This document shows, piece after piece, positions 306-45,782 of a stretch of DNA of 45,930 bases; the first letter of the stretch is position 1, and every line of letters starts with the position of its first letter. The DNA is from Kiritimatiellia bacterium. Lineage in GTDB: Bacteria; Verrucomicrobiota; Kiritimatiellia; RFP12; UBA1067. The DNA lies in NCBI GenBank assembly GCA_900767325.1, contig CAAFYT010000069.1, forward strand, positions 1-45,930, in the 5' to 3' direction. Position numbers and translations under genes: made by a program. A model generated the notes under the pieces. That model saw only the letters and a list, made by a program, of their open reading frames with translations, searched no databases and was not told the DNA's origin.

Positions 306-511
306 GTTCCCATAATTGACGAAGGTGTGTCTTGCGCCTTCCGAGATTAATGTATGACGATACTGAAAACATTGGCTAAAAACGCATTTGGGGTTGCGCG
401 GGGCGAAGTCCCGCGTGTCCTTCGCGTTGCGGTCTGTGGTCGCGGTAGAGTTTTAATTGAAAGTTAAACTGATAAGTAATGAACCACAAAACAAACAAAG
501 GAGAAAAAGCA

Positions 512-3500: not shown

Positions 3501-6500
3501 TCAACCTTACCTTTGACAATCCTGACATGATGCTCGGTAAGATTACGGTCGTAAGCTCGCGTCCGATTCGCTTTACGGCGACCAAGGCGTTGCCGAACGT
3601 CGGTCAGTTCATTACTGATGGCTGCACGGGCGGAATTGTCTATGCCTGGCCGGTTTCGGCGCTTACGACTTCCGCAGAGGGCGTGACCTACGCTGGCGGT
3701 GCTGGTACGGTTGAAACTCCGGCGACGATGAACTTCGCGGTTGCAAATGGCTCGATGACCTTGAAGGATGCGACTTATTATCTCGGCACGAGCTATTCGG
3801 GCGTGCAGTCGACCGTCAATATGATTGATGCAACGATCTTCGCTAACGGCGATATGGGCTTTGGCGTCGGTCAGGCCAATTTCAACCTCTCGGGCACGAC
3901 CAAGCTCACTTCCGAGAAGGTTGTTCTCTCGCAAGGTGGCGGTGGTCGCACCGCGAATCTGACCCTGAGCGATTCGGCGGAAGTCATCGTCACGGGTTCG
4001 TCGATTGTCGACTCCAACCAGTCCTCGATTATGTTCGGTCACTACGCCGGACCTTCAACCTTCACGATTGAGGATTCAGCGAAGTTCACCGCCGAGGACG
4101 CGCAGGTGCTCGTCGGCAAGACAGGTGGCGATCAGACGATCAACATCAATGGCGGCGTCTTCACGGCGAAGGGCATCAAGGCCTCGGCTGGTGCGACTGG
4201 CACGAATGCGCTTAACCTGAATGACGGCGAGTTGAAGCTCGGCGAGTATGGTATTACTACCTACAATGCCGCGCGTACGATTTCGGTAACCGTCGATGGC
4301 AATGCGAAGATTACCTCGACGGCGGCGATGCCGATTACGCAGGCGCTTACGATCAACGCCGATAAGACGCTGACGCTTGACGCGACGGCGGGCGACATCG
4401 TTATTTCGGGCACGGTTGTCAACAACGGCACGATCAAGGTCGTTGGCGGCAACGTCATCTTCATGCCTGGCACGGCCAACGGTACGATCGTCGAAGAGGG
4501 CGGTAAGGCGCTTTACGGCTATATCGTCTCCATCAACGATTGCGGCAAGTTCACGATTCCGGAAGGCAAGACCGCGGAGAATATCCGCCTCTTTGATGGC
4601 GCTGGTAACGTGATTCCGTTCACCGACAACAAGGATGGCACCGTCTCCTATGAGTGGAAGATCACCGGTGGCGCTTGCTGGTGGGATTACGAGTTCAATG
4701 GCAATGGCGATAATGACGGCACCGATGGCAGGGCACTCAGCTGGGATAACGATCGTCCGTTTAAGGGTGATGAATATGTAGACGGCGAGAAGGTGCACGT
4801 TCCTACGCGTCCTTGGCGTGACGTTAGTAGCTGGCCGACTACCGCGACGTTTGTGATGTATGGTACGATGCCAAGCGATGACAATAGGTATTATGTTGTG
4901 TTCGGTTCGACGACGCATGGCTTGTGCAATGCGATATTCCTTGCGACTGACAAAGTTAGCGAAGACAAGGTCGTGCTTTGCAAGGCCTACGGACGGAGCG
5001 GGACTGAGGAAGATTTGACTAAACTTTGCACGATGACCGTGCCGAATGCGCAAACCGCCGACCACCTTTATGCGTTTGTGCTCAAGAACACCGACACGCA
5101 GACTATCATCGACATCTATCTCGACGGTGAACTCCTGCAGTCCTATCCGTTTGGCGAGATCATCAATCTCGGTACCGGATTCCAGATTGCGTCTCCACAC
5201 GGCGGTCCAGTAGTTGGCTATGAACGTCCGGACGATGCTGATGAGGCACTGCTTGATTGGCTCCGCGTGTACGATGTCGAGCTAACGAAGGAGGTTCTCG
5301 AGAGGTACGCGGTTCTCTATCCGTATGTCTCGCCGAATGGCTCGTATCAGCGCACGGTGACGGAAGATGCTGATTGGTCGGCGACTGACGCGTGGACCAA
5401 GGAAGGCACCGAGCCGGCCGAGACGGCGGATGAGCCGGCGGCGGGCGCGACGGTCAAGCTTGCGATCGATAACGATGACGCGACGACGACCATCGCTATC
5501 AACCTCGCGGACGATGTGATCTACGAGGCCATTCAGATCAATGGCGACGATGTCGAGTTCGTGCTCGCCGAGGGCGAGGAGTTCGGCGGTATCGCCAAGT
5601 CGACTGGCCGCGTTACGGCGAATGCGAACATCACCTTCGCGTATAATGCGTTCTCGATGGCGGGTGCGCCGCTCACGGTCAAGCAGGGTATGACCGTAAC
5701 CTTCGATCTCTCGATGGTCGATATGACCAAGTTCTTCTCGACCCAGACGTATGACCTCACGGGCTACCTCACGCTTGAGGATGGCGCGGAAGTTACCTTC
5801 ATCGTTCCGGAAGAGCTTCACGGCCGCACGGCTGAGGCGACGATTGATCCGGTTACCAAGCACTATGTGCTGACCGTCACGGCGCCGAACTATCCGTTCG
5901 TCTATGAAGATGGAGTGTGGACTTGGGGTACGCAGGTAATTGACGAGGAAACCATCAACGCGCATCCGGAAGTTCTCCGTTCGATCAAGAGCGATCTTGA
6001 AATGGCGCTTGGCACGAGCGATTACTCGGTCGAGAACGGCGCGACCTTGACGCAGACCGATGCGAGCGCGACGGGCACGATCACGATCAACGAGGGCGGC
6101 ACCTTTGATGTTAACGGTGTAATTGATACGGCGCTCAAGATCGTCCTGAACGGCGGTTCGCTCATTAACGATGGTAGCGACATCGACGCGGGCAAGAAGC
6201 AGTATGTTTCCATTACCCAGACGGCCGCCTCGACCATCGGCGGTTCGGGTGAATTCGGCTACGTCCTCAGCGGTTATGGCGAGAACACGCTCGATCTCGG
6301 CGGCGCGACGCTGACCAAGATGGATGACAACACCTTCTCGCTCTGCAACGCGACGGTTCAGAACGGCACGTTGAAGGTAGCGGATGGTGTGCTTGCGATT
6401 GCCAACAAAGCGGTGACGATTGCGGATACCGCCACTATCGAAGGCGTGGAAGGCGCGGTTCTGAGCGTTGGATCTTCCATCAGCGACTTCACGCTCACGG

Positions 6501-9500
6501 GCGCGATTACGCTCGCGGGTGCGGGCACGTTCGGCACGATTACGCTCGACGATGCGGCGCTTGATATTGACACGGTTCGCGGCTTGACGGTTGCGGGCGA
6601 GGGCTCGATCAAGGCGACGATCACGGCGGACGAAATGGCTGGTGGCTCGGTCGTCGTCTTCACGAAGGCGGAAGACGCTACGATCAGCTCGGTCACGCTC
6701 TATGATGAGGCCGGCGAGGTGCTTTCTGGCTACACCGCCGACTACGACGAAGACGGCAACTACATCGCCAACTTCTCGGTCACCTTCACGGTTGCGTCGA
6801 TTGATGGCGCGACGGCGGCGTTTGACGAGGGCTACGTGATTGGCGAGGATGATTCGGTCACCGTTCCGTATGGTGCAACCGCGACGCTCGTCTATACGGC
6901 CAATGAGGGCAAGCTCTTCAACGATGGCAAGACCACCGTGACTGTCCTGATCGAAAACATCACCGATGCGGCCACGGCCGAGCTCACGATCGCTGCGGCA
7001 ATCGCAGATAAGTCCACGGTTGATGCAGAGGCGAAGATTGGCTCGACGCTCTATCTCACGCTCGCGGATGCGTTCGCGGTGGATGGTCAGAAGTACATCG
7101 TGCTCTTGAAGGATGTCGAGCTTACCGACTGGATCGTCGTTGATTCGGTGGCGGCGCTTGAACTTAACGGATTCACCATCAGCCAAAGCGCGTCTTGGGC
7201 GCCGGCCGAGACGTCGCACGATCACCTCTTCTGTGTCACTTACGGTGGTACGTTCAGTGTGCTGAACGCATACGAAGAGGGCGGTACGATTGATGCGACT
7301 GGCAATGGCGATCTCTATGGCGCGATCAAGATGACCAAGAAGGGTGACGTCCGTCAGGGCGAAGAACTCGCGTCGCTAACGGTCTTCAGCGGTACGATTA
7401 TCGGTAACACTGCGGCGATTAGTGGCAATGGTACTCGCCACGGCACGTCGGTTACAATTGGCGATGATTACGGTTCTACGCTGATTAAGGCGGTTGTCGC
7501 GAACGACAGCGTCGGTATCTTCAATCCGCAGGACGGCACGGTTACCATTACTGGCGGTACGATTGAAGGCGCGATGGGCATCATCATCAAGAGCGGCTCG
7601 CTCCTGATGACCGGCGGTAAGGTCGTCGCGAATGGTGAATACGCTGAGTGGGTGAAGTCCAACAACGGCTTCAATAACACTGGTGACGCCATTGAGATTG
7701 ATAACATCGGTTATCCAGGCGAGGTTGCAGAGGTTCTCATTGGTGGCGATGTGATTGTTGAGTCTGCGAATGGCGCGGCGGTTGCCTCGCGTGCGGACGG
7801 TGCCTACACCCCGATTACCGGCTTCATCGCTGGTGGTAAGTTCAAGGGTGCGATCGATACCGATACTTCGCTCATCAAGACGACTGAAACTGGCATTGGT
7901 AAGTGGGTGACTGACGAGGACGGCTACAAGGTTCCGGCGGAAGATCCTGCGATGGCCAAGATCGGCACCAAGCTCTACTTGACGCTCGCCGAGGCAGTCA
8001 CTGCGGCGACGGATAACGATGAAGTTACGCTTCTCGCAAGCTGCGCGGGCGACGGCATCAAGATCGACAAGTCGATTACGATTGACTTCGGTGGCTTCAC
8101 CTATACGGTCGACGCCAGTCTCGTTGGTTCGCCGAGCACGCAGTCGCAGGCGTTCAACCTCGTGAGGGGCAACACCATCACCTTGAAGAACGGTACGATT
8201 ACCTCGACGGTTGCGCGTATGCTCGTTCAGAACTACGCGAGCTTGACGCTCGAAGATATGACCCTCGATGGCACGAACCTCGCGGCCAAGGACGGCAAGG
8301 GCAAAGACTACGTTGCCGATACGCTCTCGAACTGCGCTGGCGATACCGTGATTACGGGTGACTCCGTCATCAAGGCGCGCGTCCTCGACGGACAGAAGAG
8401 CTTCGCGTTCGACACCTACTATCAGGCGGGTAAGTACGAGGATGCGACAGTCACGGTCGATGGCGCGACAATCAACGGCAATGTTGAGCTCGCGGGTGGT
8501 AGCTTGACGCTTACGGCTGGCACGCTCAACGGCGAGCTCGTCGAAGGCGCTAACATCGAGAAGGGCGTTGTTACCAAGGACGACGCTTTCGAGGCCGCGG
8601 CTCCGGCTGGCTACGAGTGGAAGGATGGCGTGCTTACCGCGATCTATCCGGCGGCGAAGGTTGAGCCGACGACGGTCGATGGCTTTGACTACGCGTTCAT
8701 CTACACGGCGTTGAATGATGCGCCGAAATACGACGATGCGGTTGCGTCCTTCGTCATTACGCCCACGACGGCGGTTCCGGCTGACACCATCAAGGTCGGC
8801 GGCAAGTTCGCAACGATGGGTTGGAACATCTTCAACCTCCCGGCGATTGGCGCGGGCGAGAGCTACACGATTACCGAAGCGACTTGGGCGGAGGTTAAGG
8901 ATATCTCGCCGTTCACTTGCGGCGCGGCTTCCATCGCGCTTGAGAAGGATACGGAAGTTACCCTTACCCTCAAGCTTGGCGACGATGTGATCGACACGCA
9001 GACGGTTACGCTCAAGGCGGCGAAGGTTCTCCCGACTGCGATTGTTGCGGAAGCCGAGGTTACGGGTCTCGACAAGGCGGCGACCTTCACGCTCGACAAC
9101 AAGGGCATCAGCTACGATGACTGGAACGCTGACTTCATGATCACGCTCGACAAGGATGTCGAGGCGGGTCAAATCACGCTCGGCGGTGACTATGGCGAGT
9201 ATGGTCTTGTCACGTTCCCGGCTCCGGCCTTCACGGCTGGCGAGGCCCAGGGCGTTATGGCGATGATCGGCAAGACGATCACCGTTGCCGAGCTCGACGA
9301 GTTCGTTCAGGAGTTCACCTGCGGTATCAAGAACAACACCTTCCCGACCGAGTTCGGCGTTTCGGTGCAGCTCGTGATCACCGATGGTGAGACGACGATC
9401 GACATCGGCGAGCCGTTCGAGGCGACGATCCCGGCGGCGAAGGTTCTCCCGGAGGCGTCGGTCACGCCCGTCACGGTCGAGGGTCTCGACAAGGCGGCGA

Positions 9501-10750
9501 TGTTCGGCCTCGTGGATAAGGGCGTTGGCTACGATGATTGGAACGCCGACTTCACGATCACGCTCGATCAGGATGTTGCGGCGGGTCAGATCTCGCTCGG
9601 CGGCGCCTATGGCCAGTATGGCCTCATCACGTTCCCGGCTCCAGAATTCAAGGCGGGTGTGCCGCAGAACGTCATGGCGCTCTACGGCGATAAGGTCACC
9701 GTTGCTGAGCTCGATGCCATCAAGCTCTTCGTCTGCGGCATCAAGAACAACACCTTCCCGACCGAGTTCGGTGTTTCGGTGCAGCTCGTCATCTACGATG
9801 GTGAGACGACGATCGACATCGGCGATGCGTTCGAGGCGACGATCCCGGCGGCGAAGGTTCTCCCGACGGCTTCGGTTGCGGCGACCACGCTCGAAGGTCT
9901 CGACACGGCGGCTACCTTCACGCTCGAGAGCAAGGGCATCAACTACGACGACTGGAACGCCGACTTCACGCTCACGCTCGACAAGGATGTCGAGGCGGGT
10001 CAGATCTCGCTTGGCGGAATCTATGGCGAGTATGGCCTCGTCAAGTTCCCGACTCCGGCTCTCACGGCGGGTCAGGCCTATGGCGTTATGGAGCTCTTCG
10101 GTCAGACGATTACCGTTGCCGAGCTTGCCGAGTACGTCAAGGAGTTCACCTGCGGCGTCAAGAACAACACGTTCCTTGAGAACCTCGGCGTCACGGTGCA
10201 GCTCGTGATCACCGATGGTGAGACGACGATCAAAATCGGCGATGCGTTCGAGGCGACGGTTGAAGCGGTTGAGCCGTTCGATCCGGAAGTTCCTCAGACC
10301 TACAATACGCCGGAAGCGGCGCAGGAGGCGGCTGATACGATCAACGACAACAAGCTCACCATGATCAACATCCCGACCGTTGTGACCGACAAGCAGGCCT
10401 ATGTTGACCTCTTCGAGGCGGTCGCCGAGGGAACGACGGTTACGGTGCAGCTCACGGAAGATGCCAAGGGCGAAATCGCGGAAGAGCTCAAGAATGCCGA
10501 TGCGGCGGCGACGATTCTCACGCCGGACGAGGACGGCAAGGCGACCATCATCGCGAAGCCGGGTCTCTGGTACGGCATCAAGGCCGAGGGCTCGCTCTAC
10601 GATATGCCGACTGCCGAGGGTCAGAACTGGGAGCAGGCCACCGATGACACCGTCGCGGTCAAGGTTCCGGTTGTCACCGATTCTGAAGGCAACAAGGCCA
10701 AGGCCGCGTTCTTCCAGGCGACTTGCTCGGCGAAGGCGCCGACCAAGTAA
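512..10750 (+). CDS. Giant secreted/cell-surface protein (3412 aa), adhesin-like with ConA/LamG-like and beta-helix-like modules
   Basis: Uninterrupted ORF that opens at 479. AAGGAG lies 7 nt upstream of ATG 512. Signal peptide MSKLKSLIVATLAFAASFVTGSALA. Two LamG-like domain ends (GVAIFNERLTVDEIAAYEF; LDWLRVYDVELTKEVLERY). Duplicated YDVIVY modules and AKIGxxLYLTLAxA caps, plus three C-terminal tandem repeats. Confidence 0.9.
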   Translation: MSKLKSLIVATLAFAASFVTGSALAATPVAVWSGNFAGAETGVASGKYTLKANGNTVADDGSAITISSNVGVLVDWTDRSDFSTAGNITVIVKYSDYTVGANNGAAATLWAGSATANKDIVGPFTTASTGILNNIWNGAADGRGTKENKVLPASGVFSFDYSGNTAPKGSTTYIENNGTFEEACSGNGTLYTSTKDFYGLAVGGSRNAYNNLKALTGMKILGVAIFNERLTVDEIAAYEFPERKYCVYSQGTASGWGGNCNYNNNLNAIKLPETDAAPAGTKVEVTKLEIAQSPGGNTDDNRPTRIAITVDGKTTTSADFVSGGTIPASGGNNPVKLTYNFPEGCVLTVGTQATIKWLKADGSEITSIRYAASNDATGRFLLVNNGSANYSPIALLYGYALNIRTGKVINFNIQNTGSDGSVSGKGAQTTLIGSMPEASWNNNGSTKMGTISSGIKIYNTNDGTTEDTNMSVGVGNYLSGCGNYAYYGDGGTGTTGNLPNDYYYLHTFQTYRNYGNPDSGIEASNIKLTGIPFEKYDVIVYFNGSYKDGSNEKFHKVNITCNGVSRDYTVDANGAFIAGTADWGATRQVSSAYGVNAAVFTDVATADFELKLAEKYANIAAFQVVERVIPRVTSKATISEDTNWSEIQWDPAVEDFSTTKLELTVENNAKITLDEIVTCVGLAINGVSTFDVAEDLYEDGCWEKQFLSAKSFTSTGTISFGALKEGFYGAFTQTEKGISLRAQNKEVISINIAGGSGGGAGGDSPAANLVSGTGFYGIAPTVGDSWNNINRQWQSGGNQTITIDGPNAYDGKDVIKRETMSLSATGKNTWQAGSISNPFLRGYLDDGSGVTVEVHGVPYTEYDVIVYATSDSASIALAPITINGKQYTFKNGATTEGSDVWGQGLYATPEIGKNALRVNGCTGDTITINAVRTGGRATLCGVQVINKGEVVLKEDFSATITDSIKFSDITWDGGKTFKEGQLNEVVITVGDGTDEEVNLTFDNPDMMLGKITVVSSRPIRFTATKALPNVGQFITDGCTGGIVYAWPVSALTTSAEGVTYAGGAGTVETPATMNFAVANGSMTLKDATYYLGTSYSGVQSTVNMIDATIFANGDMGFGVGQANFNLSGTTKLTSEKVVLSQGGGGRTANLTLSDSAEVIVTGSSIVDSNQSSIMFGHYAGPSTFTIEDSAKFTAEDAQVLVGKTGGDQTININGGVFTAKGIKASAGATGTNALNLNDGELKLGEYGITTYNAARTISVTVDGNAKITSTAAMPITQALTINADKTLTLDATAGDIVISGTVVNNGTIKVVGGNVIFMPGTANGTIVEEGGKALYGYIVSINDCGKFTIPEGKTAENIRLFDGAGNVIPFTDNKDGTVSYEWKITGGACWWDYEFNGNGDNDGTDGRALSWDNDRPFKGDEYVDGEKVHVPTRPWRDVSSWPTTATFVMYGTMPSDDNRYYVVFGSTTHGLCNAIFLATDKVSEDKVVLCKAYGRSGTEEDLTKLCTMTVPNAQTADHLYAFVLKNTDTQTIIDIYLDGELLQSYPFGEIINLGTGFQIASPHGGPVVGYERPDDADEALLDWLRVYDVELTKEVLERYAVLYPYVSPNGSYQRTVTEDADWSATDAWTKEGTEPAETADEPAAGATVKLAIDNDDATTTIAINLADDVIYEAIQINGDDVEFVLAEGEEFGGIAKSTGRVTANANITFAYNAFSMAGAPLTVKQGMTVTFDLSMVDMTKFFSTQTYDLTGYLTLEDGAEVTFIVPEELHGRTAEATIDPVTKHYVLTVTAPNYPFVYEDGVWTWGTQVIDEETINAHPEVLRSIKSDLEMALGTSDYSVENGATLTQTDASATGTITINEGGTFDVNGVIDTALKIVLNGGSLINDGSDIDAGKKQYVSITQTAASTIGGSGEFGYVLSGYGENTLDLGGATLTKMDDNTFSLCNATVQNGTLKVADGVLAIANKAVTIADTATIEGVEGAVLSVGSSISDFTLTGAITLAGAGTFGTITLDDAALDIDTVRGLTVAGEGSIKATITADEMAGGSVVVFTKAEDATISSVTLYDEAGEVLSGYTADYDEDGNYIANFSVTFTVASIDGATAAFDEGYVIGEDDSVTVPYGATATLVYTANEGKLFNDGKTTVTVLIENITDAATAELTIAAAIADKSTVDAEAKIGSTLYLTLADAFAVDGQKYIVLLKDVELTDWIVVDSVAALELNGFTISQSASWAPAETSHDHLFCVTYGGTFSVLNAYEEGGTIDATGNGDLYGAIKMTKKGDVRQGEELASLTVFSGTIIGNTAAISGNGTRHGTSVTIGDDYGSTLIKAVVANDSVGIFNPQDGTVTITGGTIEGAMGIIIKSGSLLMTGGKVVANGEYAEWVKSNNGFNNTGDAIEIDNIGYPGEVAEVLIGGDVIVESANGAAVASRADGAYTPITGFIAGGKFKGAIDTDTSLIKTTETGIGKWVTDEDGYKVPAEDPAMAKIGTKLYLTLAEAVTAATDNDEVTLLASCAGDGIKIDKSITIDFGGFTYTVDASLVGSPSTQSQAFNLVRGNTITLKNGTITSTVARMLVQNYASLTLEDMTLDGTNLAAKDGKGKDYVADTLSNCAGDTVITGDSVIKARVLDGQKSFAFDTYYQAGKYEDATVTVDGATINGNVELAGGSLTLTAGTLNGELVEGANIEKGVVTKDDAFEAAAPAGYEWKDGVLTAIYPAAKVEPTTVDGFDYAFIYTALNDAPKYDDAVASFVITPTTAVPADTIKVGGKFATMGWNIFNLPAIGAGESYTITEATWAEVKDISPFTCGAASIALEKDTEVTLTLKLGDDVIDTQTVTLKAAKVLPTAIVAEAEVTGLDKAATFTLDNKGISYDDWNADFMITLDKDVEAGQITLGGDYGEYGLVTFPAPAFTAGEAQGVMAMIGKTITVAELDEFVQEFTCGIKNNTFPTEFGVSVQLVITDGETTIDIGEPFEATIPAAKVLPEASVTPVTVEGLDKAAMFGLVDKGVGYDDWNADFTITLDQDVAAGQISLGGAYGQYGLITFPAPEFKAGVPQNVMALYGDKVTVAELDAIKLFVCGIKNNTFPTEFGVSVQLVIYDGETTIDIGDAFEATIPAAKVLPTASVAATTLEGLDTAATFTLESKGINYDDWNADFTLTLDKDVEAGQISLGGIYGEYGLVKFPTPALTAGQAYGVMELFGQTITVAELAEYVKEFTCGVKNNTFLENLGVTVQLVITDGETTIKIGDAFEATVEAVEPFDPEVPQTYNTPEAAQEAADTINDNKLTMINIPTVVTDKQAYVDLFEAVAEGTTVTVQLTEDAKGEIAEELKNADAAATILTPDEDGKATIIAKPGLWYGIKAEGSLYDMPTAEGQNWEQATDDTVAVKVPVVTDSEGNKAKAAFFQATCSAKAPTK
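9017..10261 (+). repeat. Three in-frame tandem repeats of 138-139 aa (417/414/414 nt) inside the giant gene
   Basis: Each unit starts GCGGCGAAGGTTCTCCC (AAKVLP...) at 9017, 9434 and 9848. Each contains DDWNADF...GQI(T/S)LGG.YG.YGL..FP...FTCG(I/V)KNNTF...VQLVI.DGETTI.IG. A degenerate fourth copy precedes them at about 8650-9016. Confidence 0.9.
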
Positions 10751-38495: not shown

Positions 38496-39614
38496 ATGCG
38501 CGTTTGGGGAATCACGGGAACGAACGGCAAGACCACGACGGCGTGGATTCTCGCGGACTTCATCGGCGCCGAGCGGCCGTGCGGACTGATCACGACGGTC
38601 GAGGTTTCGACGCGTTCGCGCACCTTCTCGACCGGCTACACGACGCCGCCGCTCGATCGGCTCAAGGAGATCTTCGCCGAGATGGAGGCGAACGGCTGCA
38701 CGGACTGCGTGATGGAGGTGTCGTCCCACGCGATCCATCAGCATCGCACGGGCAACACGCTCTTCGCGGGCGGCGCGTTCACGAATCTCTCGGAGGACCA
38801 TCTCGACTACCACAAGACGATGGAGGCGTATTTCGACGTGAAGCTCGACTTCGCGCGACAGATCGCGCGTGCGCGCGGCTCCTCTCCGGCGCCGAATCTG
38901 GGCCGGGGGAACCTGCCGCCTTACGCGGTGTGTCTGGACGGCGGCTTTGGCGCGGAGATGTTCGCGGCGGTCGGGAAGCTGCCGCTCAATGCGCTGCCGG
39001 TTACGGTGCGTGCGCCGCGTTACGACTTGAAGGAGCTGCAGCTCGCGGGCGACTACAACAAGCAGAACGTGCTGCTCGCGGCGACGCTCGCCGAGGCCGC
39101 GGGGATCAGTCGCGCGACGATCGCGCGGCGCATACCGTCCCTGCGGCCGCGCTGGGGACGGTTGGAGCGGGTGGAGAACGAGCGCGTTTCCGCCGCGGTC
39201 TACGTCGATTTCGCCCACACGCCCGACGCCTTGGAGAAGGTCTTGACGGCGGCGCGGGGATTCTGCGGCGGGGCGCTTTGGGTGGTGTTCGGCGCGGGCG
39301 GCGATCGGGACAGCGCGAAGCGTCCCCTAATGGGGGCGGTGGCGGCGCGGCTGGCGGATCGGATCGTCGTCACGAGCGACAATCCGCGCAGCGAGGCGCC
39401 GTTGCAGATCATCGGGCAGATACTCGAGGGGATCGGGGCGCGCGAGGCGACGGTCGAGCCGGATCGGCGCGAGGCGATCTACTTTGCGTTGCGCGAGGCG
39501 TTGCCGGGCGATGTCGTGATCATCGCGGGCAAGGGACACGAAACGACGCAGGAGATCGCCGGCGTGAAGCGTCCATTCGATGACCGCGCGGTTGTCAGGG
39601 GGTTTCAGGAATGA
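38496..39614 (+). CDS. MurE-like Mur ligase lacking the N-terminal UDP-binding domain (372 aa)
   Basis: It begins directly at the P-loop GITGTNGKTTT. It also has MEVSSHAIHQHR, FTNLSEDHLDYH, GAGGDRD and the MurE-type DNPRSE motif. No upstream coding space exists for domain 1. Confidence 0.75.
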   Translation: MRVWGITGTNGKTTTAWILADFIGAERPCGLITTVEVSTRSRTFSTGYTTPPLDRLKEIFAEMEANGCTDCVMEVSSHAIHQHRTGNTLFAGGAFTNLSEDHLDYHKTMEAYFDVKLDFARQIARARGSSPAPNLGRGNLPPYAVCLDGGFGAEMFAAVGKLPLNALPVTVRAPRYDLKELQLAGDYNKQNVLLAATLAEAAGISRATIARRIPSLRPRWGRLERVENERVSAAVYVDFAHTPDALEKVLTAARGFCGGALWVVFGAGGDRDSAKRPLMGAVAARLADRIVVTSDNPRSEAPLQIIGQILEGIGAREATVEPDRREAIYFALREALPGDVVIIAGKGHETTQEIAGVKRPFDDRAVVRGFQE

Positions 39615-40273
39615 ACGGCCCGATCATCGCAGTCCTCCGCGGAGTCGACTCCACTTCCACTTCGACTTCATCTTCGACTTCCCCTTCGACTTCCCATCTT
39701 ATCGCGGCGCTTGCGGAGGGGGGTATTCGGACGGTTGAGTTGGCGTTTTCGGCGTCGGCGCGGGAGAGTTGGCGGGGGACGGCGCGGCTGATCGGCTCTC
39801 TTGTGCGGCGGTTTGGGGGCGAAGTCGAGATTGGCGCGGGGACGGTTCTATTTGCGGAGCAGGTTGAGTTGGCGGCGGAGGCGGGGGCGCGGTTCATGGT
39901 TTCGCCGGTTGTGGACGAGGGGATCATTCGTTTGGCGCGGGGGAGGGGGCTTGAGGTATTGCCGGGGGCGTTCACGCCGACGGAGATTGCGCGGGCGGCG
40001 TCGGCTGGGGCGGGGGCTGTGAAGGTGTTTCCGGCGGGGGCGGTTGGGCCATCGTACATTCGCGCGTTGTCCGCGCCGCTTTCGCATGTTTCGTTTTGGG
40101 CGTTTGGGGGGGTGACGCTTCAGAGCATTGGGGCGTATCGGTCGGCGGGGTGTGTTGGTGTGGGCATCAGCAGTCCGTTCCTCGACCGCGTGGCTCTCTC
40201 GCGCGGCGATTTCGCCTCCATCTCCACCACCGCCCGTCGTTTCGTGTCGGCGTGGGAAGGACAACGGATATGA
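39611..40273 (+). CDS. eda: KDPG/KHG aldolase (Eda family) with a 15-aa Ser/Thr insertion
   Basis: GIRTVELAF, GAGTV, GARFMVSP, PGAFTPTEI, and KVFPA with the catalytic Lys. ATGA overlaps at both ends. Confidence 0.85.
   Translation: MNGPIIAVLRGVDSTSTSTSSSTSPSTSHLIAALAEGGIRTVELAFSASARESWRGTARLIGSLVRRFGGEVEIGAGTVLFAEQVELAAEAGARFMVSPVVDEGIIRLARGRGLEVLPGAFTPTEIARAASAGAGAVKVFPAGAVGPSYIRALSAPLSHVSFWAFGGVTLQSIGAYRSAGCVGVGISSPFLDRVALSRGDFASISTTARRFVSAWEGQRI
39650..39694 (+). repeat. CTTCGACTTCNN-type 12-nt repeats encoding STSTSTSSSTSPSTS inside eda
   Basis: TTCGACTTC occurs at 39661, 39673 and 39685. It is the complement of the GAAGTCGAA words seen in the dksA-like and LysM genes. Confidence 0.85.
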
Positions 40274-41556
40274 CTTGCGGAAATTGGCGTCTTGGGGTCG
40301 AGATTGGTCGCGGGGCATTTGGCGTTGTGCACCATGCGCTCGGGCCAGATGGCGAGAGCGTTGCCATAAGGGTTTGCCGTCGCGCGGACATTGGCGATGA
40401 AAGCTACGCGCGCGAGATTCGCGGTGCGAAGCTCTATGGAACGATACCCCGTTGCGAGGGGCTGCTCTACATGCGGGAGATTGTCGAGACGGACTGGGGC
40501 TTTTACGCCGTTTTCGACCTTGCGGACGACGAATTCGGGGGCGTCTTGGAGTCGACGGGGAACTATCGCCCGAAGACGCTTGCCAAGGTCATCGCCGGAG
40601 AGAAGGCATTGCGTCTGGAGGAGTGCATCGGGCTTGCGATCTCGCTGGCTCGTGGACTGATGGTTCTCCAAAGACACCATCTTCTGCATCGCGACATCAA
40701 GCCGGGGAATGTTCTTTATGTTGGCGGGCGAGCGGTGCTGGCTGATCCGGGGTTGCTCATCGAGGAGGCCGAAGCCGCGTCGCTTGTCGGCACGCCGGGC
40801 TATGTTCCACCGGAGCGGTTCACCGACTCCGCAAGCGATGTCTATAGTCTTGGGCTTACGCTCAAGGCCGCGAGCTTTGGGCGGCAGGTTGATGATCTCA
40901 GCAAGGGACCGGCAATGGAGGCCGACACGGGTGCGGCCTGTTTTCCCGCTTGGTGGCGAATTCTCAACAAGGCGACGGATCCTGTCGCCTCGCGCCGCTA
41001 TCGGTCGGCGAAGGCACTTGCTAAGGATCTTTACCTTTTGCGCTACTGGATGATGTTTGCGAGTTTGTTTCGTAGCAGGTTGCTGGTTGTCGCGATTGTG
41101 GTTCTGTCTGTTTTGTCCGTGATGGCGGCACTTTATTTGCGGAGCTTCATGAGCAAGTCAAAGTACGATGACTTTGTGTCGCGGGCGGATCAAGAGAGAA
41201 AGTCGGTTGCTGAAAAGGCCTTGGCCGATTTCGTGGATAAACGCGTGGCGGAAGATATGCCGGACATCAGGCGGGGCATCAAGGAAGCATATCTGTCAAC
41301 GCTCAACATGATGCGTGATGAGCTTGCGGACAAGAAAAAGGAAATTGCGGAATTTGAAGATCAAATCGCCGAGAGCGAGAAGGATATCAAAGAGGCGGAA
41401 GAAGCGGGCGACAAGAGCCGTAAGGAAGCCATAGAATACAACTTGAGACACAAGAAGAAGTTGCTTGGATTTGTGCAAAAACGCGCGGCTGAACTTGAAC
41501 GGGATATTCCTGCTTGGGAGAAGAAGATCTCTACTTTTGAGGAGAAGCACAAATGA
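40270..41556 (+). CDS. Membrane-anchored Ser/Thr protein-kinase-like protein with atypical catalytic motifs
   Basis: GRGAFGVV, HRDIKPGN and GTPGYVPPE are present. VAIK is VAIR (AGG at 40369-40371) and DFG is DPG (40744-40752). TM helix LLVVAIVVLSVLSVMAALYL, then a Lys/Glu coiled coil. Confidence 0.8.
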   Translation: MTCGNWRLGVEIGRGAFGVVHHALGPDGESVAIRVCRRADIGDESYAREIRGAKLYGTIPRCEGLLYMREIVETDWGFYAVFDLADDEFGGVLESTGNYRPKTLAKVIAGEKALRLEECIGLAISLARGLMVLQRHHLLHRDIKPGNVLYVGGRAVLADPGLLIEEAEAASLVGTPGYVPPERFTDSASDVYSLGLTLKAASFGRQVDDLSKGPAMEADTGAACFPAWWRILNKATDPVASRRYRSAKALAKDLYLLRYWMMFASLFRSRLLVVAIVVLSVLSVMAALYLRSFMSKSKYDDFVSRADQERKSVAEKALADFVDKRVAEDMPDIRRGIKEAYLSTLNMMRDELADKKKEIAEFEDQIAESEKDIKEAEEAGDKSRKEAIEYNLRHKKKLLGFVQKRAAELERDIPAWEKKISTFEEKHK

Positions 41557-42191
41557 CCTATCGGCATTTTAATAACGAGACGACGCGCTCCAGCGTGCTG
41601 AAGGCGGTTGCGAATGTCGGAAACGAAGCCGCGTGGGCGCGGTTCTTCGATCTCTACGCGGGTTTTGTTTTTACGATTGCGCGCAGCCGAGGGCTTTCGG
41701 CGGAGGATGCGGATGATGTCGTGCAGGGGGTTTTCGTCGATCTGTCGCGCCAGATGCCAACATTCGACTACGACCGCGCGCGGGGCAAGTTTCGTTCGTA
41801 TCTTTTCGGCCTTGTCAATTGGCGCATTACCGACAAGTTGAAGGCGAACAAGCGCGAGAGCGATTCGAAGGCCGCATATCTCAACGAGACTGCGGTATCT
41901 GCGGGCGATGCGGCCTTCTTTGAGCGCGAGTGGCAGGAAGCGGCGTTGAACGAAGCCCTGCGGCGGTTGAAGGCGGAGGTGAACGCCGATCATTTCGCCG
42001 CGTTCGTCGAAAGCACCGTCGAAGGCATCGACACCGAATCGGTCGTGAAGCTCCACGGTCTGACGCGCGACAATCTCTACCAGATCCGCACGCGCCTTAC
42101 CGCCAAGCTGAAGCCCCTCGTCGCCGAAGTCCTCAAAGAAATGAACGAAGGCAAGATGCCGCGAATGAATGGCGGCGATCCGCGGTCTTGA
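41553..42191 (+). CDS. ECF-type sigma-70 family factor
   Basis: Region 2-like FFDLYAGFVFTIARSRGLSAEDADDVVQGVFVDL...SYLFGLVNWRITD. Region 4-like VKLHGLTRDNLYQIRTRLTAKL. ATGA overlap with the kinase gene. Confidence 0.75.
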   Translation: MTYRHFNNETTRSSVLKAVANVGNEAAWARFFDLYAGFVFTIARSRGLSAEDADDVVQGVFVDLSRQMPTFDYDRARGKFRSYLFGLVNWRITDKLKANKRESDSKAAYLNETAVSAGDAAFFEREWQEAALNEALRRLKAEVNADHFAAFVESTVEGIDTESVVKLHGLTRDNLYQIRTRLTAKLKPLVAEVLKEMNEGKMPRMNGGDPRS

Positions 42192-43083
42192 TGGCCTCGG
42201 CGATTGCCGAGATGAGACCATCATTGTTCTCTTCGTCAAGCCAGGACCATTGTCCATTGGGGTTGAGCTCGAGGAACCACAGTTCGCCATTCTTCCGAAT
42301 GAAGTCGAACCGCCCGAAGCGATAGCCCGTCTCCGCCATAAAGCCGCGAATGGCGGATTGCTCGGCTGAAGAAAGCGCGCACAACTGCCAGCGGGAGGGA
42401 TTTTCGAGAGAGGCCTTTCGCACATCGTCGCATTCCGTGATTTCTGATCGCGGATAGCGGTAGGCAAAGAGTCTGTCATTGACAGAAACAACAGTTACCT
42501 CATCTTCGCCATCGACTTTTTCCTGAACAAACCATGGATAAGCGAGATCCAAAAGGTGGGGATCAACCTCTTTGACCAAAAACAACTTGCCGGCACCGAT
42601 GGATGCTCCTGTCAAGGCCTTTACAACCCAACGGCCATGATTCAGTTCCTTTGGCAATGTGCCATGGAAAATGTGCCAGTCTGAAACGTTGAAATAATTT
42701 TTTGCGACCTTCATCTGCCGTATCTTGCCATAGGTTTGGTCGCGGCAAACAACAAGGCGAGTGAGCCGTTGCGACTCGCATTCACGATAAAAATCCCTGA
42801 AAAGCTCAAGAGTTTCGTTGCGACACCAATTCTCGGGGCTTCCATTTTTGGGAATGTCAATCGTTTTGAGGTAAATGGGCTTCCTGAGGTAAAAGGACGA
42901 AAGCGTTTTGGAGTTGATGAGCGCGTGGGTTTGGACGTTTGTGATTTCAAATCCGTCGTGGAAAAAATGCCATGAGTAGTCTTCGGGTTTGTCTATGTTG
43001 AACCGAAAAACATCTGACTCGTTCAAGTGTGGGATTAGAATGTTGCTTGCGCCATCTTGACTGCAAGTGAGAATGAAGATCAT
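42133..43083 (-). CDS. MvdD/RimK-type ATP-grasp ligase (candidate graspetide macrocyclase)
   Basis: N-terminus MIFILTCSQDGAS compares with MvdD MTVLIVTFSRDNES. C-terminus YRFGRFDFIRKNGELWFLELNPNGQWSWL compares with MvdD YGAIDMIV...IFLEINPVGEFFWL. AAGGAG RBS before ATG 43083. GC is lower than the surrounding sequence. Confidence 0.75.
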   Translation of the reverse strand: MIFILTCSQDGASNILIPHLNESDVFRFNIDKPEDYSWHFFHDGFEITNVQTHALINSKTLSSFYLRKPIYLKTIDIPKNGSPENWCRNETLELFRDFYRECESQRLTRLVVCRDQTYGKIRQMKVAKNYFNVSDWHIFHGTLPKELNHGRWVVKALTGASIGAGKLFLVKEVDPHLLDLAYPWFVQEKVDGEDEVTVVSVNDRLFAYRYPRSEITECDDVRKASLENPSRWQLCALSSAEQSAIRGFMAETGYRFGRFDFIRKNGELWFLELNPNGQWSWLDEENNDGLISAIAEAIKTADRRHSFAASCLRSFL

Positions 43084-43116
43084 AGGCGATGGGCTCCTTG
43101 CATGAGGTGGGGAAAG

Positions 43117-43163
43117 GAGGTGGCGTTTTACCGCCACCTCATAGCGCTAATCTTGCGATTAGC
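43117..43163 (-). promoter_or_regulatory. Two hairpins between the precursor and the ATP-grasp gene (attenuator or partial terminator candidate)
   Basis: GCTAATC-TTGC-GATTAGC at 43146-43163. GAGGTGGCG-(6 nt)-CGCCACCTC at 43117-43140, followed on the minus strand by CUUUCCCC. Confidence 0.5.
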
Positions 43164-43179
43164 AACCTTTGCGGACAGA

Positions 43180-43290
43180 TTAGCAGAAATCCTGCCAATC
43201 ACTTCCACCAGCAGTTTGACTTATGGTTGCGTTGACAGAGCCCGTCCCAACGGGAATCGTCACGGTCGTCGCAATGTCTATAGGTGTCAT
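43180..43290 (-). CDS. 36-aa candidate graspetide precursor MTPIDIATTVTIPVGTGSVNATISQTAGGSDWQDFC (absent from the ORF track)
   Basis: Hand translation of the minus strand. GAAAGGAAAG RBS 5-6 nt upstream of ATG 43290, TAA stop at 43180-43182. Located between the ABC and ATP-grasp genes. Thr/Ser plus Asp rich. SDWQDF resembles the microviridin core PSDWEEY. Confidence 0.6.
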   Translation of the reverse strand: MTPIDIATTVTIPVGTGSVNATISQTAGGSDWQDFC

Positions 43291-43347
43291 TGTTTCTTTC
43301 CTTTCTTGTTTTGCTTTGGTTAACCAAACGCAGCGGACACTCGCCCG

Positions 43348-45015
43348 CTACATAATGATATACGAACGATCTTCGTTGGTCTGACAGAAAATTTTCGCGT
43401 CGCACAATTCGTCCAGTTCGGCGTCGTGTCCGGCGAGGAGAATGATGCGTCCTGGGCGAAGCCGCGCGACGAGGCCGGCGAATGTTCTGCGAGACGCAAC
43501 GTCGAGATGGTTCGTGGCTTCGTCCAGGACAAGAATGGATGGGTTGCGGATGATGGCGCGGGCGATGGCGAGGCGTTGCCGTTCGCCGCCCGAAAGCATG
43601 CGGTGGCGCGCGCCGATGCGTGTTTGGAGTCCATCGGGGAGGCGCTTTACGACGGCTTCGAATCCGCTGAGAGCGAGCGCCTTGTCGATATCTGGTTGCG
43701 TGTAGGCAGGGTCTCGCAGGGTGATGTTGTCCCGAATTGTTCCATCGATGATGAGGTTGTCTTGGCAAACGACGGCGAGGCGCTTGCGGAAAACGGCGGG
43801 GTCGAGCGAGGCGAGAGGACTGCCGTTGACGAGAACCTGGCCTTTCTGCGGCTCCAAGGCACCGAGGGCGAGCTTGAGGAGTGTGGATTTTCCCGTGCCG
43901 TTGGATCCGAAAAGTCCAATCACGGAATTCGTGTGGATTGTGGTGGAAAAATCGCGGATTACAGGGCAATTGGGTTCCTTTGGATAGGCGAATGTAACAT
44001 GGTCAAATGCGAGAGAGCTGAGGGCGTTGGGGCGAATGGCGCCCTGTTTGATCGGCGGGCGGTCAAGTACTTCGTTCAGCGAATCAACGCCTTCGCGCAA
44101 GGCGGCGAGGTCGGGAAGCAATCCAATGACGCCCTGGATGGATTGAAACGCCGCGATGAAGAGCATTTGGTAGAGAACGACGTCGCCAACGGGTATGGAG
44201 CCATTCGCCGCAAGCGAGCCCGCAATGCCGAGTACGGCGACTTCGCCTCCGATGAGAAGGGCACCGAGGAGGAATCCGAAGCGGCTGGCGAGCGCATCGG
44301 CAATGTCGTTGCCGTTGCGTAGCCCCTCCAGCGCGGTGCGTGGTGCATCGGCGAAGCGCCGCTCGGCATCGTGGAGACGGAGGAAGGGGAGGGACTGGAG
44401 GAATGCGAAGAGGGCGCAGAACGAGGCATCGTTCTGGCGCCTGACGCGATGGGAGTTCGCGGCGAAACATCGCACAAACGGCGAGAAGAGGGCAACGACG
44501 AGCGGAAAGAACGCCACAAAGGCGACAGAGAGGATCGTCGAGCGCGAATAAAGAGCGACGCCAGATGAAAGCATCATCACCGTGGCCTGGAGCAACTGCG
44601 GGTAAAGCCCTCGAACGAATCCGCCGATAGCGTAAGCATCGCGCGTCAGCTTGGCGACGATTTCGCCGTTGGCGATGTCGACGAGGTGGCAGGGCGGGAG
44701 AGCCATCGTCGCATCAAGAACGCGGAACTGGAGATCTTGCTCAACTGCGCGGGAGCGGGCGGCGATGTAGCGTTGGAGAACGGGGGCGAGCGCGGCCTTG
44801 GCGAGAAGAAGGAGGGCGAGGACGATGAATGGACCGCTGAACGGCTGGCGGCAAACGAGTGCATCGACGAATCGTCCAGTGGCGAAGGGCGCGGCGACGC
44901 CGATCAAGGTGAGTAAAACCAGGAGTGGCGAATAGGCGAGGAGAACGCCTGGCGATGAGGCAAGGACGGCGAAAAGGAATCTTCCGCGCTTCAGGTTTGT
45001 TCTGAACGAGTTCAT
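43348..45015 (-). CDS. ABC transporter with fused permease and ATPase (exporter type, no peptidase domain)
   Basis: ATG 45015 (MNSFRTNLKRG). N-terminal TM region. Walker A GSNGTGKST, signature LSGGERQR and Walker B ILVLDEAT. Confidence 0.85.
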   Translation of the reverse strand: MNSFRTNLKRGRFLFAVLASSPGVLLAYSPLLVLLTLIGVAAPFATGRFVDALVCRQPFSGPFIVLALLLLAKAALAPVLQRYIAARSRAVEQDLQFRVLDATMALPPCHLVDIANGEIVAKLTRDAYAIGGFVRGLYPQLLQATVMMLSSGVALYSRSTILSVAFVAFFPLVVALFSPFVRCFAANSHRVRRQNDASFCALFAFLQSLPFLRLHDAERRFADAPRTALEGLRNGNDIADALASRFGFLLGALLIGGEVAVLGIAGSLAANGSIPVGDVVLYQMLFIAAFQSIQGVIGLLPDLAALREGVDSLNEVLDRPPIKQGAIRPNALSSLAFDHVTFAYPKEPNCPVIRDFSTTIHTNSVIGLFGSNGTGKSTLLKLALGALEPQKGQVLVNGSPLASLDPAVFRKRLAVVCQDNLIIDGTIRDNITLRDPAYTQPDIDKALALSGFEAVVKRLPDGLQTRIGARHRMLSGGERQRLAIARAIIRNPSILVLDEATNHLDVASRRTFAGLVARLRPGRIILLAGHDAELDELCDAKIFCQTNEDRSYIIM

Positions 45016-45235
45016 GGCTTCACTCTGATATACGAAGGTCGCTTGGAGGTCTGACAACGATCGGAGTATTGCAAAAGGAACGGAAGAGGTGATTTTTGCA
45101 TTTTGTTGGAGAAACAACTGAAAGCATCGGAGCAAAAGTCCATAATATGCGGCGTCGCGAGGCAAGCGGCGTCAGGCTTGAGTCGAGCGTGGCCGAGAAA
45201 TGTGCCGATGCGACGAAACGGAAAGGAAAACGAAC

Positions 45236-45361
45236 ATGAACACGATTACCTGGATCTGCGTGAGCATTGTGGCGCTCATTGTGGTCGCGAGTGTCATCGG
45301 GTGCTGCCGGCGTAGGTGCTGGCGCAACAAGAACTGCCGCTCCGGCGGCGCTTGTCCCTGA
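45236..45361 (+). CDS. Small 41-aa membrane peptide with a Cys/Arg-rich tail (MNTITWICVSIVALIVVASVIGCCRRRCWRNKNCRSGGACP)
   Basis: AAGGAAA RBS. Very high GC3 (33 of 40 codons end in G or C). One TM helix. A strong terminator follows, 26 nt downstream. Not in the ORF track because it is shorter than 60 aa. Confidence 0.5.
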   Translation: MNTITWICVSIVALIVVASVIGCCRRRCWRNKNCRSGGACP

Positions 45362-45387
45362 CATGGGCCAAATATACTGATACGCCT

Positions 45388-45426
45388 GGCTCGGCATCGC
45401 CTCTTGGCGGTGCCGAGCCGCTTTTT
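45388..45426 (+). terminator. Rho-independent terminator (14-bp stem, TCTT loop, T5 tail)
   Basis: GGCTCGGCATCGCC-TCTT-GGCGGTGCCGAGCC followed by GCTTTTT. Confidence 0.8.
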
Positions 45427-45633
45427 CCCTGTACATCCCGTCATTCACTGTGACGAGCTCAAGCCCCGGGATCGTGAGTTGGGCGAACTCGCGGTGCGGG
45501 GGTTCCTTCATCCCGTAAAATAAGGGCGGAATCAACATCCCGCCCGCTCAACTGCCGAACTTAGTCTAAACGGCTGATGATTCGGTTGCCGCCGCCGAGG
45601 TGCGAATGAAGAGTGCCAAGGGTGTATGATGAA

Positions 45634-45782
45634 CGTTATATAACGGTTGTGTGCGCGATATATGACGGATGGTTGAGCGTTATAATAACTGTTGGTTTTG
45701 CGTTATATTACGGTTTCTTAGACGGTATATGACGCATTGACAAATTCTATATAATATGATAGAATGTCTTATATAACAGTTT
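45634..45782. repeat. Seven ~22-bp-phased copies of a CGTTATATAACGGTT-like box overlapping a promoter
   Basis: Copies start at 45634, 45656, 45678, 45701, 45723, 45746 (degenerate) and 45768. The core is the palindrome GTTATATAAC and variants. Confidence 0.75.
45737..45765 (+). promoter_or_regulatory. Sigma70-type promoter TTGACA-17 nt-TAGAAT with an upstream TG
   Basis: TTGACA at 45737-45742 and TGATAGAAT at 45757-45765. It is embedded in the phased box array upstream of ATG 45804. Confidence 0.6.

Follow-up and report, generated by a model that had tools for sequence, protein, structure and literature searches.

Graspetides, a class of RiPPs (peptides synthesised by ribosomes and then altered post-translationally) matured by ATP-grasp enzymes, are well studied, with 43 groups and >20,000 predicted members recognised in a recent survey (PMC13097080), so that a further family alone would be only moderately surprising. 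The closest described biosynthetic systems are the microviridin clusters mdnA-E (graspetide group 1), which hold a precursor, ATP-grasp macrocyclase and ATP-binding cassette (ABC) transporter in one small cluster, and the single-ligase omega-ester peptides (plesiocin/PsnB, chryseoviridin/CdnC and PruB-type), in which one ATP-grasp enzyme forms Thr/Ser-Asp/Glu esters on a leader-bearing precursor. On the regulatory side, the nearest parallels are sigma factors of the extracytoplasmic function (ECF) group ECF43 (EcfP/PknT of Vibrio parahaemolyticus and EcfK/PknS of Xanthomonas citri), which are co-encoded with a single-pass membrane Ser/Thr kinase and lack an anti-sigma factor. In the present study we examined a 45,930-nucleotide stretch of DNA (hereafter the window) from a Kiritimatiellia bacterium (assembly GCA_900767325.1, contig CAAFYT010000069.1, positions 1 to 45,930), in which five genes probably constitute a module for the production and export of a modified peptide of graspetide type, run by its own sigma factor. 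The peptide and its ligase apparently represent an undescribed graspetide family. The features of the module are the following:

40270..41556, plus strand: membrane Hanks-type Ser/Thr kinase, 428 aa (Pfam Pkinase, 1.4e-17; 428 aa on sibling contigs too).
41553..42191, plus strand: ECF-type sigma factor, 212 aa (Pfam Sigma70_r2, 9e-10; TIGR02937, 55 bits against a cut-off of 42.9).
42133..43083, minus strand: graspetide-type ATP-grasp ligase, predicted macrocyclase, 316 aa (NCBIfam, PDB sequence and Foldseek matches).
43117..43163, minus strand: a pair of stem-loops in the precursor-ligase gap, GCUAAUC-GCAA-GAUUAGC and GAGGUGGCG-GUAAAA-CGCCACCUC, the latter followed by CUUUCC (read from the sequence).
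43180..43290, minus strand: gene of the 36-aa precursor peptide, MTPIDIATTVTIPVGTGSVNATISQTAGGSDWQDFC (about 60 distinct loci have it at this position).
43348..45015, minus strand: ABC exporter, 555 aa, a half-transporter with fused transmembrane and nucleotide-binding domains and no C39 peptidase domain (Pfam ABC_membrane, ABC_tran).
43359..43386, minus strand: precursor promoter TGTCAG-N16-CGTATA, in the last exporter codons, about 70 nt upstream of the precursor ATG (exact match).
45029..45056, minus strand: promoter of the exporter, TGTCAG-N16-CGTATA, its end lying about 14 nt upstream of the ATG of that gene (exact match).

The three minus-strand open reading frames (ORFs) are present in the window at the coordinates given by the original prediction, a model's reading of the sequence without database searches, and its assignment of them to an exporter, a precursor and a single graspetide-type ligase is upheld by the affinities of the ligase and the conservation of the small ORF. 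The absences it had pointed out were also confirmed, there being one ligase, no acetyltransferase among the neighbours and no peptidase domain on the exporter (Pfam). It had further described the cluster as minimal, which it is not, as the kinase and ECF sigma pair and two ECF-type promoters also belong. A total of 166 related loci were fetched (labels such as L003 and L007 denote these loci). An alignment-based scan of genome contigs succeeded where a single-sequence scan gave none. Every close relative is a Kiritimatiellia or Verrucomicrobiota metagenome-assembled genome, in line with the PVC-like host surmised from the window. Of 47 distinct loci in the Kiritimatiellia clade, defined by a ligase at least 54% identical, 46 have the exporter gene directly 5' of the ligase, and a homologous small ORF was found between exporter and ligase in about 60 distinct loci, making the exporter-precursor-ligase arrangement far beyond chance. 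The gene content, homology and conservation of the module, together with its promoter motif, hairpin and core-ligase co-variation described below, are shown by the analysis.

The ligase begins MIFILTCSQD, as do all of its homologues. Its only NCBIfam matches at E<0.001 were RiPP ATP-grasp maturases, comprising TIGR04187 (SAV_5884-type ATP-grasp RiPP maturase; 1e-21), MvdC (3e-16), MvdD (1e-8) and grasp-with-spasm (2e-5), and its only significant PDB sequence matches were MdnB, AMdnB, PruB (9bou), CdnC and MdnC; the microviridin enzymes MdnB, AMdnB and MdnC are its nearest solved relatives. An AlphaFold2 model built on 24 family members (predicted local distance difference test score, pLDDT, 71) returned graspetide macrocyclases as all of its top 26 Foldseek matches (E 7e-15 to 3e-8), with RimK from rank 27. 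Strong fold matches included PsnB, CdnC and PruB, at sequence identities of only 14-24%. The segments FGRFDF and FLELNPNGQW (E-x-N), invariant across 24 family members, align with the same segments of MdnB and AMdnB, and we take their residues to be Mg- and ATP-binding from general knowledge of the fold. RimK structures are themselves significant fold matches of the ligase (E ~6e-8), RimK acts on an acidic C-terminus, and the precursors described below end in an acidic motif. The enzyme might consequently be imagined to extend or tail the acidic C-terminus in a RimK-like manner, or to ligate another molecule, without cyclising. We consider this very unlikely, as all better matches by hidden Markov model (HMM), sequence and fold are macrocyclases, no RimK or GshB family model in NCBIfam or Pfam matched the ligase at E<0.1, and both the conserved Ser/Thr located 5-12 residues upstream of Asp and the leader/core organisation of the precursors fit the graspetide pattern. 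The ligase thus groups by HMM, PDB sequence and fold with RiPP macrocyclases and not with the primary-metabolism enzymes RimK and GshB, and belongs with the peptide macrocyclases as a distant branch outside current family models. The label MvdD-like, used in the original prediction, holds at the superfamily level and not beyond it, given an MvdD score of 35 bits against a cut-off of 475 and the absence of the microviridin leader, core Lys and second ligase. An exhaustive profile search of 1.84 billion representative proteins identified 132 clusters (50% identity) at E<=1e-30, a number that rises to 690 with the threshold at E<=1e-10, and a word-indexed search found 321 ligase relatives with 57-81% identity. 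No Pfam domain is recorded among the 120 ligase relatives listed, for which the only source name is 'hypothetical protein [Kiritimatiellae bacterium]'.

The precursor comprises a leader of approximately residues 1-18 and a core of approximately residues 19-36. It had been described as unannotated, and rightly so: the exact 36-aa peptide is absent from a collection of ~15 billion proteins, and the gene was not called on two sibling contigs from independent assemblies. Spurious ORFs are plentiful in this GC-rich window, and with the peptide annotated in no database the small ORF could be read as a chance ORF next to an ATP-grasp enzyme of primary metabolism. Such a coincidence is so improbable as to be nearly negligible when set against the conservation of the ORF, its coding-type substitution pattern, its Shine-Dalgarno sequence, its own promoter and following hairpin, its co-variation with the ligase, and the affinities of that ligase to RiPP maturases. 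The check for a conserved small ORF in homologous loci, proposed with the original prediction, yielded 56 distinct precursor peptides of 32-47 aa from the ~60 loci. Their N-terminus, MTPxDIAT, is nearly invariant and is followed by a Gly-rich junction such as G(S/E/D)(G/V)N and a hypervariable Ser/Thr-rich middle, with 3-11 Ser/Thr ahead of the C-terminal Asp. Two to three Asp occur within the last 10 residues in 55/56 precursors and a DD pair in 48/56; Lys is found in only five of the 56. Most family members have a core of the form ...[IVM]DDxNTWD, and the window peptide falls in a small subclass, ...T-x-x-G-x-D-W-x-x-(W/F)-(D/C), its nearest relative being that of L007 (core NGTISQTFNGQDWQDFC). 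Leader entropy by codon position (0.30, 0.28 and 0.98) places the variation mainly at third positions, and a Shine-Dalgarno-like sequence precedes 58 of 59 precursor copies. In pairwise comparisons, the further apart two ligases are, the further apart their cores tend to be (Mantel r=0.41, p=0.0005), the pattern expected of an enzyme and its substrate, and the correlation is unchanged when controlling for the kinase domain. Beyond this clade, an ORF located just upstream of the ligase with an (M/L)(S/T)P..(V/I)A leader element was found in distant Verrucomicrobiota (Opitutales, human-gut and lake lineages, and Akkermansia; ligase 34-47% identical), where the precursor cores end (I/V/M)DDW. On these sequence grounds, the small ORF is a real precursor gene.

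The combination of an MdnB/MdnC/PsnB-type ligase with intact FGRFDF and E-x-N motifs and an adjacent precursor bearing a leader and a donor/acceptor core indicates that the cluster is a graspetide cluster by every feature that sequence can address. Only the SDWxDF tail recalls the microviridins: the C-terminus of the window peptide, SDWQDF, resembles PSDWEDF of a microviridin (RODEO dataset). Microviridin clusters, however, encode two ligases (MdnB and MdnC) and a GNAT acetyltransferase, in contrast to one ligase and no acetyltransferase here; their leader motif is PFFARFL rather than MTPxDIAT; and their core, TxKxPSDx(E/D)(D/E), includes a Lys that the window core lacks, so that no lactam is expected. 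A dedicated kinase and sigma factor further set the window cluster apart, and judging by these features it is not a microviridin cluster. It would operate in the manner of the single-ligase omega-ester systems of PsnB, CdnC and PruB, from which it differs in its leader and core motifs, in a very short precursor (32-47 aa) that carries one core and no repeats, and in a host range of Kiritimatiellia and Verrucomicrobiota.

The exporter ATG at 45015 agrees with the public gene call of 555 aa. The nearest NCBIfam models are CydD, MsbA, TAP and the NHLM exporter, all under cut-off, and the stop-to-stop frames of related exporters are mostly 559-615 aa and therefore too short for a peptidase domain. 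A k-mer analysis of the regions upstream of the exporter revealed two boxes, TGTCAG(ATT)-N16-CGTATA; of 48 distinct loci, 47 have both, and in 45 of those 47 the spacing is fixed. In the window, this conserved promoter lies ~15-40 nt upstream of the exporter ATG. Most Kiritimatiellia loci also carry the second copy, at the precursor promoter, ~300 nt upstream of the start of the ligase. Overall, the motif occurs 169 times in 2.84 Mb of fetched locus DNA (both strands), against an arithmetic estimate of ~5 for random sequence, and its occurrences cluster upstream of the exporter gene, the precursor and, in related loci, a candidate small RNA (sRNA). All copies are in loci with a ligase at least 46% identical, save two in one near-identical human-gut pair (42%). 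The geometry of TGTCAG-N16-CGTATA matches that of ECF-class promoters, in which a T-tract follows the -35 hexamer and the -10 element is CGTA (PMC5758882). Across clades, presence of the motif follows that of the sigma/kinase genes, both being present in 39 loci and both absent in 35, with the motif only in six and the sigma factor or kinase only in two.

The two stem-loops at 43117-43163 are predicted to act as a leaky terminator or a transcript-stabilising hairpin. A strong GC-rich intergenic hairpin is found in 61 of 64 distinct loci (mean z -4.5 relative to shuffles), often followed by a U-rich tract, and its stem sequences vary between loci while pairing is kept. A hairpin after the structural gene is a familiar RiPP design that over-produces the structural transcript.

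The kinase consists of an N-terminal kinase domain, one transmembrane (TM) helix (LVVAIVVLSVLSVMAALYL) and a tail of 138 aa, a Lys/Glu-rich coiled coil for which an extracytoplasmic location is predicted. This architecture is common to ~45 homologues, the tails of which are extremely variable (23-570 aa), and the family keeps the motifs HRDIKPGN, DPG (a variant of DFG) and PPE. The sigma gene overlaps the kinase stop by 4 nt. Its product belongs to the ECF type, scoring over the cut-off of TIGR02937 (sigma70-ECF) and having no sigma regions other than sigma2 and sigma4. Across loci it keeps 60-70% identity and nearly always adjoins the kinase. An invariant acidic sigma2.2 segment, EDADDxVQ, was observed in 52 family members alongside a conserved N-terminus, MTYRHFNNExTRSSV. 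In most Kiritimatiellia loci, homologues of the kinase and sigma factor (60-70% identical) are located <=5 kb from the ligase, usually convergent with it and sometimes upstream or on the same strand; because position and orientation vary, the linkage evidently survives rearrangement. The sigma and ligase ORFs overlap tail-to-tail by 59 nt (42133-42191). Of 45 loci with this convergent arrangement, 40 retain an overlap, of 12-80 nt (mode 80), and transcripts reading through from the induced operon would therefore run antisense to the mRNA of sigma factor and kinase. Regions upstream of the kinase have no ECF motif and often carry an extended -10 element, TGGTATAAT, of housekeeping type, and the regulators look constitutively expressed. 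In the window, the kinase start at 40270 overlaps by 4 nt the 3' end of a gene (39611-40273) of the 2-keto-3-deoxy-6-phosphogluconate (KDPG) aldolase family, and the pair may thus be co-transcribed with a metabolic gene in this genome; this neighbour is not conserved in other loci.

No anti-sigma gene adjoins the sigma factor; ECF groups that associate with kinases and lack anti-sigma factors are already established (PMC7826278). In ECF43, a phosphorylated Thr supplies the missing charge of sigma2.2, in which DxxD has become the uncharged QTTA (PMC13147305). We rejected the same phospho-switch for the present sigma factor, the acidic residues of EDADDxVQ being invariant where ECF43 has QTTA with its phospho-acceptor Thr. 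The two systems differ also in their targets, which are polymyxin resistance or a type VI secretion system in ECF43 and a RiPP operon here, and in that the gene order here is kinase then sigma factor, translationally coupled. As a candidate acceptor site we can put forward only, by inference, the N-terminal MTYRHFNNExTRSSV.

We infer the ring chemistry, the linked residues, the reading of the motif by the sigma factor and the control of that factor by the kinase to be as follows. The precursor would be transcribed from its own ECF-type promoter, the 3' hairpin probably passing only part of the transcripts into the ligase gene, such that precursor exceeds enzyme. The ligase is predicted to bind the conserved N-terminal leader MTPxDIAT and, with ATP, to activate the C-terminal Asp side chains (D31 and D34 in the window peptide) as acyl-phosphates, which may then be joined to upstream Ser/Thr hydroxyls (candidates T22, S24, T26 and S30) to give one or two macrolactone rings; since Lys is absent from the core, esters are expected and not amides. 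The half-transporter, expressed from the second copy of the same promoter, would export the product, and as it has no peptidase domain, the short leader would either be cut by an unlinked protease or stay on the product. The likeliest regulators are the adjacent membrane Hanks kinase and ECF sigma factor. The kinase may activate the sigma factor on a signal from outside the cytoplasm, and the sigma factor may recognise TGTCAG-N16-CGTATA at both promoters and also drive the sRNA in related genomes.

Several observations weigh against this scheme. Neither a leader peptidase nor an immunity gene is present at the locus. The ligase has no Pfam match, and every NCBIfam score lies far under its curated cut-off and covers the C-terminal half only: TIGR04187 gave 77 bits against 350, over residues 150-298 only, which places the ligase outside that family, and the equivalogs MvdC and MvdD gave 59 against 425 and 35 against 475. 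The ligase model is of low confidence at residues 67-87, 108-114 and 159-169 and therefore does not resolve the substrate-binding region. The link between sigma factor and motif is one of co-occurrence only, the acidic sigma2.2 segment makes the published ECF43 activation mechanism inapplicable, and the outer tail of the kinase does not co-vary with the peptide core. The window copy also has peculiarities of its own. Alone of 45 family members, its kinase carries K34R at the catalytic beta3 Lys (AGG, 40369-40371), a substitution that recurs in two independent sibling assemblies; as beta3 Lys substitutions usually cripple kinases, this copy is perhaps inactive or atypical. Both window promoters also have GTCAGACC where others have GTCAGATT, and together with K34R this suggests that the window copy may be regulated differently or be partly inactive. 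At 45050-45056 and 43380-43386 (minus strand), both promoters read TGTCAGACC, compared with TGTCAGATT in 45 of 48 related loci, and the identical change in the two is a hint of co-evolution with the sigma factor. The sigma4 region of the window reads IRTRL, the family consensus being IRKRL.

The candidate sRNA of ~90-130 nt was observed in related loci only, where it is driven by TGTCAG-N16-CGTATA (for example L003 ~3850-3974, L005 ~2150-2278 and L008 ~4780-4901, all on the minus strand), with three copies in L031 and two each in L035 and L077. It consists of a conserved hairpin, CCGGCUGAGAGAGCCCGG, ~24 nt past the -10 box, followed by a long GC-rich hairpin with a U-run. Among 29 instances, 26 have the motif at a fixed distance, and one covarying pair was noted in the hairpin. 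Directly downstream of the sRNA, after an extended -10 element of the TGGTATAAT type, is a second conserved non-coding element of ~150 nt (...CAGAUUUCCCGCGCGG...GGGACGCGUCGCAAGAAAGCCUGAGAAAC...GUAAAGACGCAC...), found in L003, L005, L008, L014, L020, L029, L031, L035, L038, L098 and L106, sometimes several times per contig. Neither the sRNA hairpin nor the second element was found in the window. Rfam searches of the window and of seven related loci gave no family, and neither the sRNA nor the ~150-nt element has a match there. Genes behind other copies of the motif are heterogeneous (an HtrA-like protease in L016, ABC-F proteins and DUF-type ATPases), and many sit behind the sRNA and not directly behind the motif; the protein regulon that we claim is accordingly confined to the exporter and the precursor/ligase.

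Among characterised graspetides, protease inhibition is the most frequent activity. By analogy, an extracellular or periplasmic protease inhibitor is tentatively the most likely role for the product, although at somewhat less than even probability, and a self-produced signal comes next, at clearly lower probability. In the signalling case, the exported graspetide would act as a pheromone sensed by the Hanks kinase, which through the ECF sigma factor would induce the exporter, the precursor and the small RNA. This circuit concerns the role of the product and is compatible with the biosynthetic scheme proposed above. Its parts are all linked, namely precursor, exporter, membrane kinase, transcription factor and promoters before precursor and exporter, much as agr of Staphylococcus and the nisin system (nisRK with PnisA/PnisF) link a modified peptide, an exporter, a membrane sensor kinase and a transcription factor. 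The likeness extends to separate inducible promoters for structural and transport genes and to a small RNA output, seen here in relatives, where the same promoter drives it. The regulator operon looks constitutive, like that of nisRK, and the cores are hypervariable among close relatives while the leader is fixed, as is typical of pherotypes. The agr and nisin systems, in contrast, rely on a histidine kinase and response regulator in place of a Hanks kinase and sigma factor; modification here is by an ATP-grasp enzyme, and receptor-ligand co-variation was not detected. Core distances and kinase-tail distances gave a Mantel r of 0.10 (p=0.045), and controlling for relatedness reduced this to a non-significant partial r of 0.05-0.08, tail distances being near saturation (0.85). 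Near-identical kinase tails accompany different core classes, and no ligand-binding fold can be recognised in the tails, which are coiled coils rich in Lys/Glu and 23-570 aa long. A role of the tail as peptide receptor consequently found no support, and hypervariable cores would fit antagonism or protease targeting equally well. On balance we regard the pheromone circuit as possible and rather improbable.

A similar kinase also accompanies graspetide-type genes outside the Kiritimatiellia. In Akkermansia-type loci (L054, L055, L056, L058 and L064-L066; e.g. L056 4188-7939), a 72-aa precursor and a ligase occur with no ABC gene, and the precursor cores are of the form ...VNFTYTF...QRMDDANLA or ...GSFS...VDDWHLA. 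About seven of these loci have a kinase of the same architecture (TM helix and coiled coil) together with a 111-aa helix-turn-helix-like protein that replaces the sigma factor, and the TGTCAG/CGTATA motif is absent from them. The recurrence of this kinase alongside precursor and ligase, with another DNA-binding partner, counts in favour of the pheromone circuit. The most far-reaching version of that circuit, in which Kiritimatiellia, and Akkermansia-type Verrucomicrobiota with their other DNA-binding partner, use a graspetide as a cell-to-cell signal and the kinase activates the sigma factor unlike in ECF43, possibly at the N-terminal TRSS, is doubtful. If true, it would bring the first pheromone among graspetides, and also the first quorum-sensing-like peptide circuit made of a Ser/Thr kinase and a sigma factor, in bacteria that are abundant in gut and rumen.

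Across 42200-43400 the guanine-cytosine (GC) content of the window falls to 0.46-0.53, most of the 6 kb before it lying at 0.60-0.70. The reduced GC that the original prediction reported for the ligase and precursor region is thus seen in the window, and its attribution to horizontal acquisition is not sustained. A recently acquired island comprising ligase and precursor would account for this difference from the flanks, and the genes flanking the module do differ from locus to locus. The dip, however, is confined to ligase and precursor, the exporter gene having a GC of 0.56-0.63, and in the 45 related loci neither the exporter gene, a member of the same operon, nor the sigma gene is GC-depleted. 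Ligase GC lies below that of the flanks in 38 of these 45 loci, by a mean of 4.6 points, and follows host GC (0.375 in a 0.44 genome and 0.60 in a 0.65 genome). Because the offset recurs in 38/45 loci and scales with the host, low ligase GC is a compositional trait of the gene family, and the module spans a whole bacterial class at 54-81% identity, which fits long residence. We accordingly rejected recent horizontal transfer, which is distinctly unlikely on this evidence. A second GC dip in the window, at 41000-41600, corresponds to the Lys/Glu-rich tail of the kinase. The identity of the module with a known anti-phage defence was likewise rejected on the outcome of a PADLOC search, which gave only generic kinase and ABC-ATPase domain matches, none for ligase or sigma factor, and no system-specific component.

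Other elements of the window and of related loci were recorded in passing. A 41-aa ORF at 45236-45361 (plus strand), divergent from the exporter, encodes one TM helix and a Cys/Arg-rich tail (MNTITWICVSIVALIVVASVIGCCRRRCWRNKNCRSGGACP), and is followed at 45387-45420 by a terminator with a 15-bp stem and a T-run; a 172-aa minus-strand ORF placed by gene callers at 45020-45538 looks spurious. Further along, an AT-rich array at 45634-45781 comprises five or six CGTTATATAACGG-like units that are spaced 22-23 nt apart and resemble iterons or operators. It is located upstream of a strong sigma-70-like promoter (45737-45765) and of an ORF running from 45805 off the contig. The left of the window is filled by an open reading frame of 3423 aa (479-10750, plus strand). 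A decayed module was observed in L077 (6869-7141; contig shared with L022), where the final 47 aa of a ligase directly adjoin a 50-aa ABC fragment, next to an intact sigma and kinase pair with four copies of the promoter motif nearby.

The original prediction had not recognised a graspetide of this kind as described, which is consistent with the family models, literature and datasets searched. The main texts of two graspetide surveys (Makarova 2022, PMC8939145; RODEO 2026, PMC13097080) mention neither these taxa nor Ser/Thr kinases or sigma factors among co-occurring genes. The portions of their supplements that were searched, for the taxa, MBR1920478 and peptide motifs, contained nothing relevant, absence there not being proof. 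Literature searches combining graspetide with Verrucomicrobia or rumen, and Akkermansia with ATP-grasp and RiPP, also returned nothing relevant. Current annotation misses the family, which has no Pfam match and scores far under NCBIfam thresholds, its proteins being named 'hypothetical' and its peptide gene left uncalled. It is widespread in the poorly understood and largely uncultured Kiritimatiellia of rumen and gut, recurring in dozens of genomes and with a recognisably related form in Akkermansia. The ~60 natural cores on one fixed 8-residue leader motif constitute a ready substrate panel for engineering a compact macrocyclase. The explicit regulatory circuit, consisting of a kinase/sigma pair, a sharp promoter motif and, in relatives, an sRNA, provides an experimental handle on the role of graspetides in their producers, and on the control by Hanks kinases of ECF sigma factors with a normal sigma2.2 surface.

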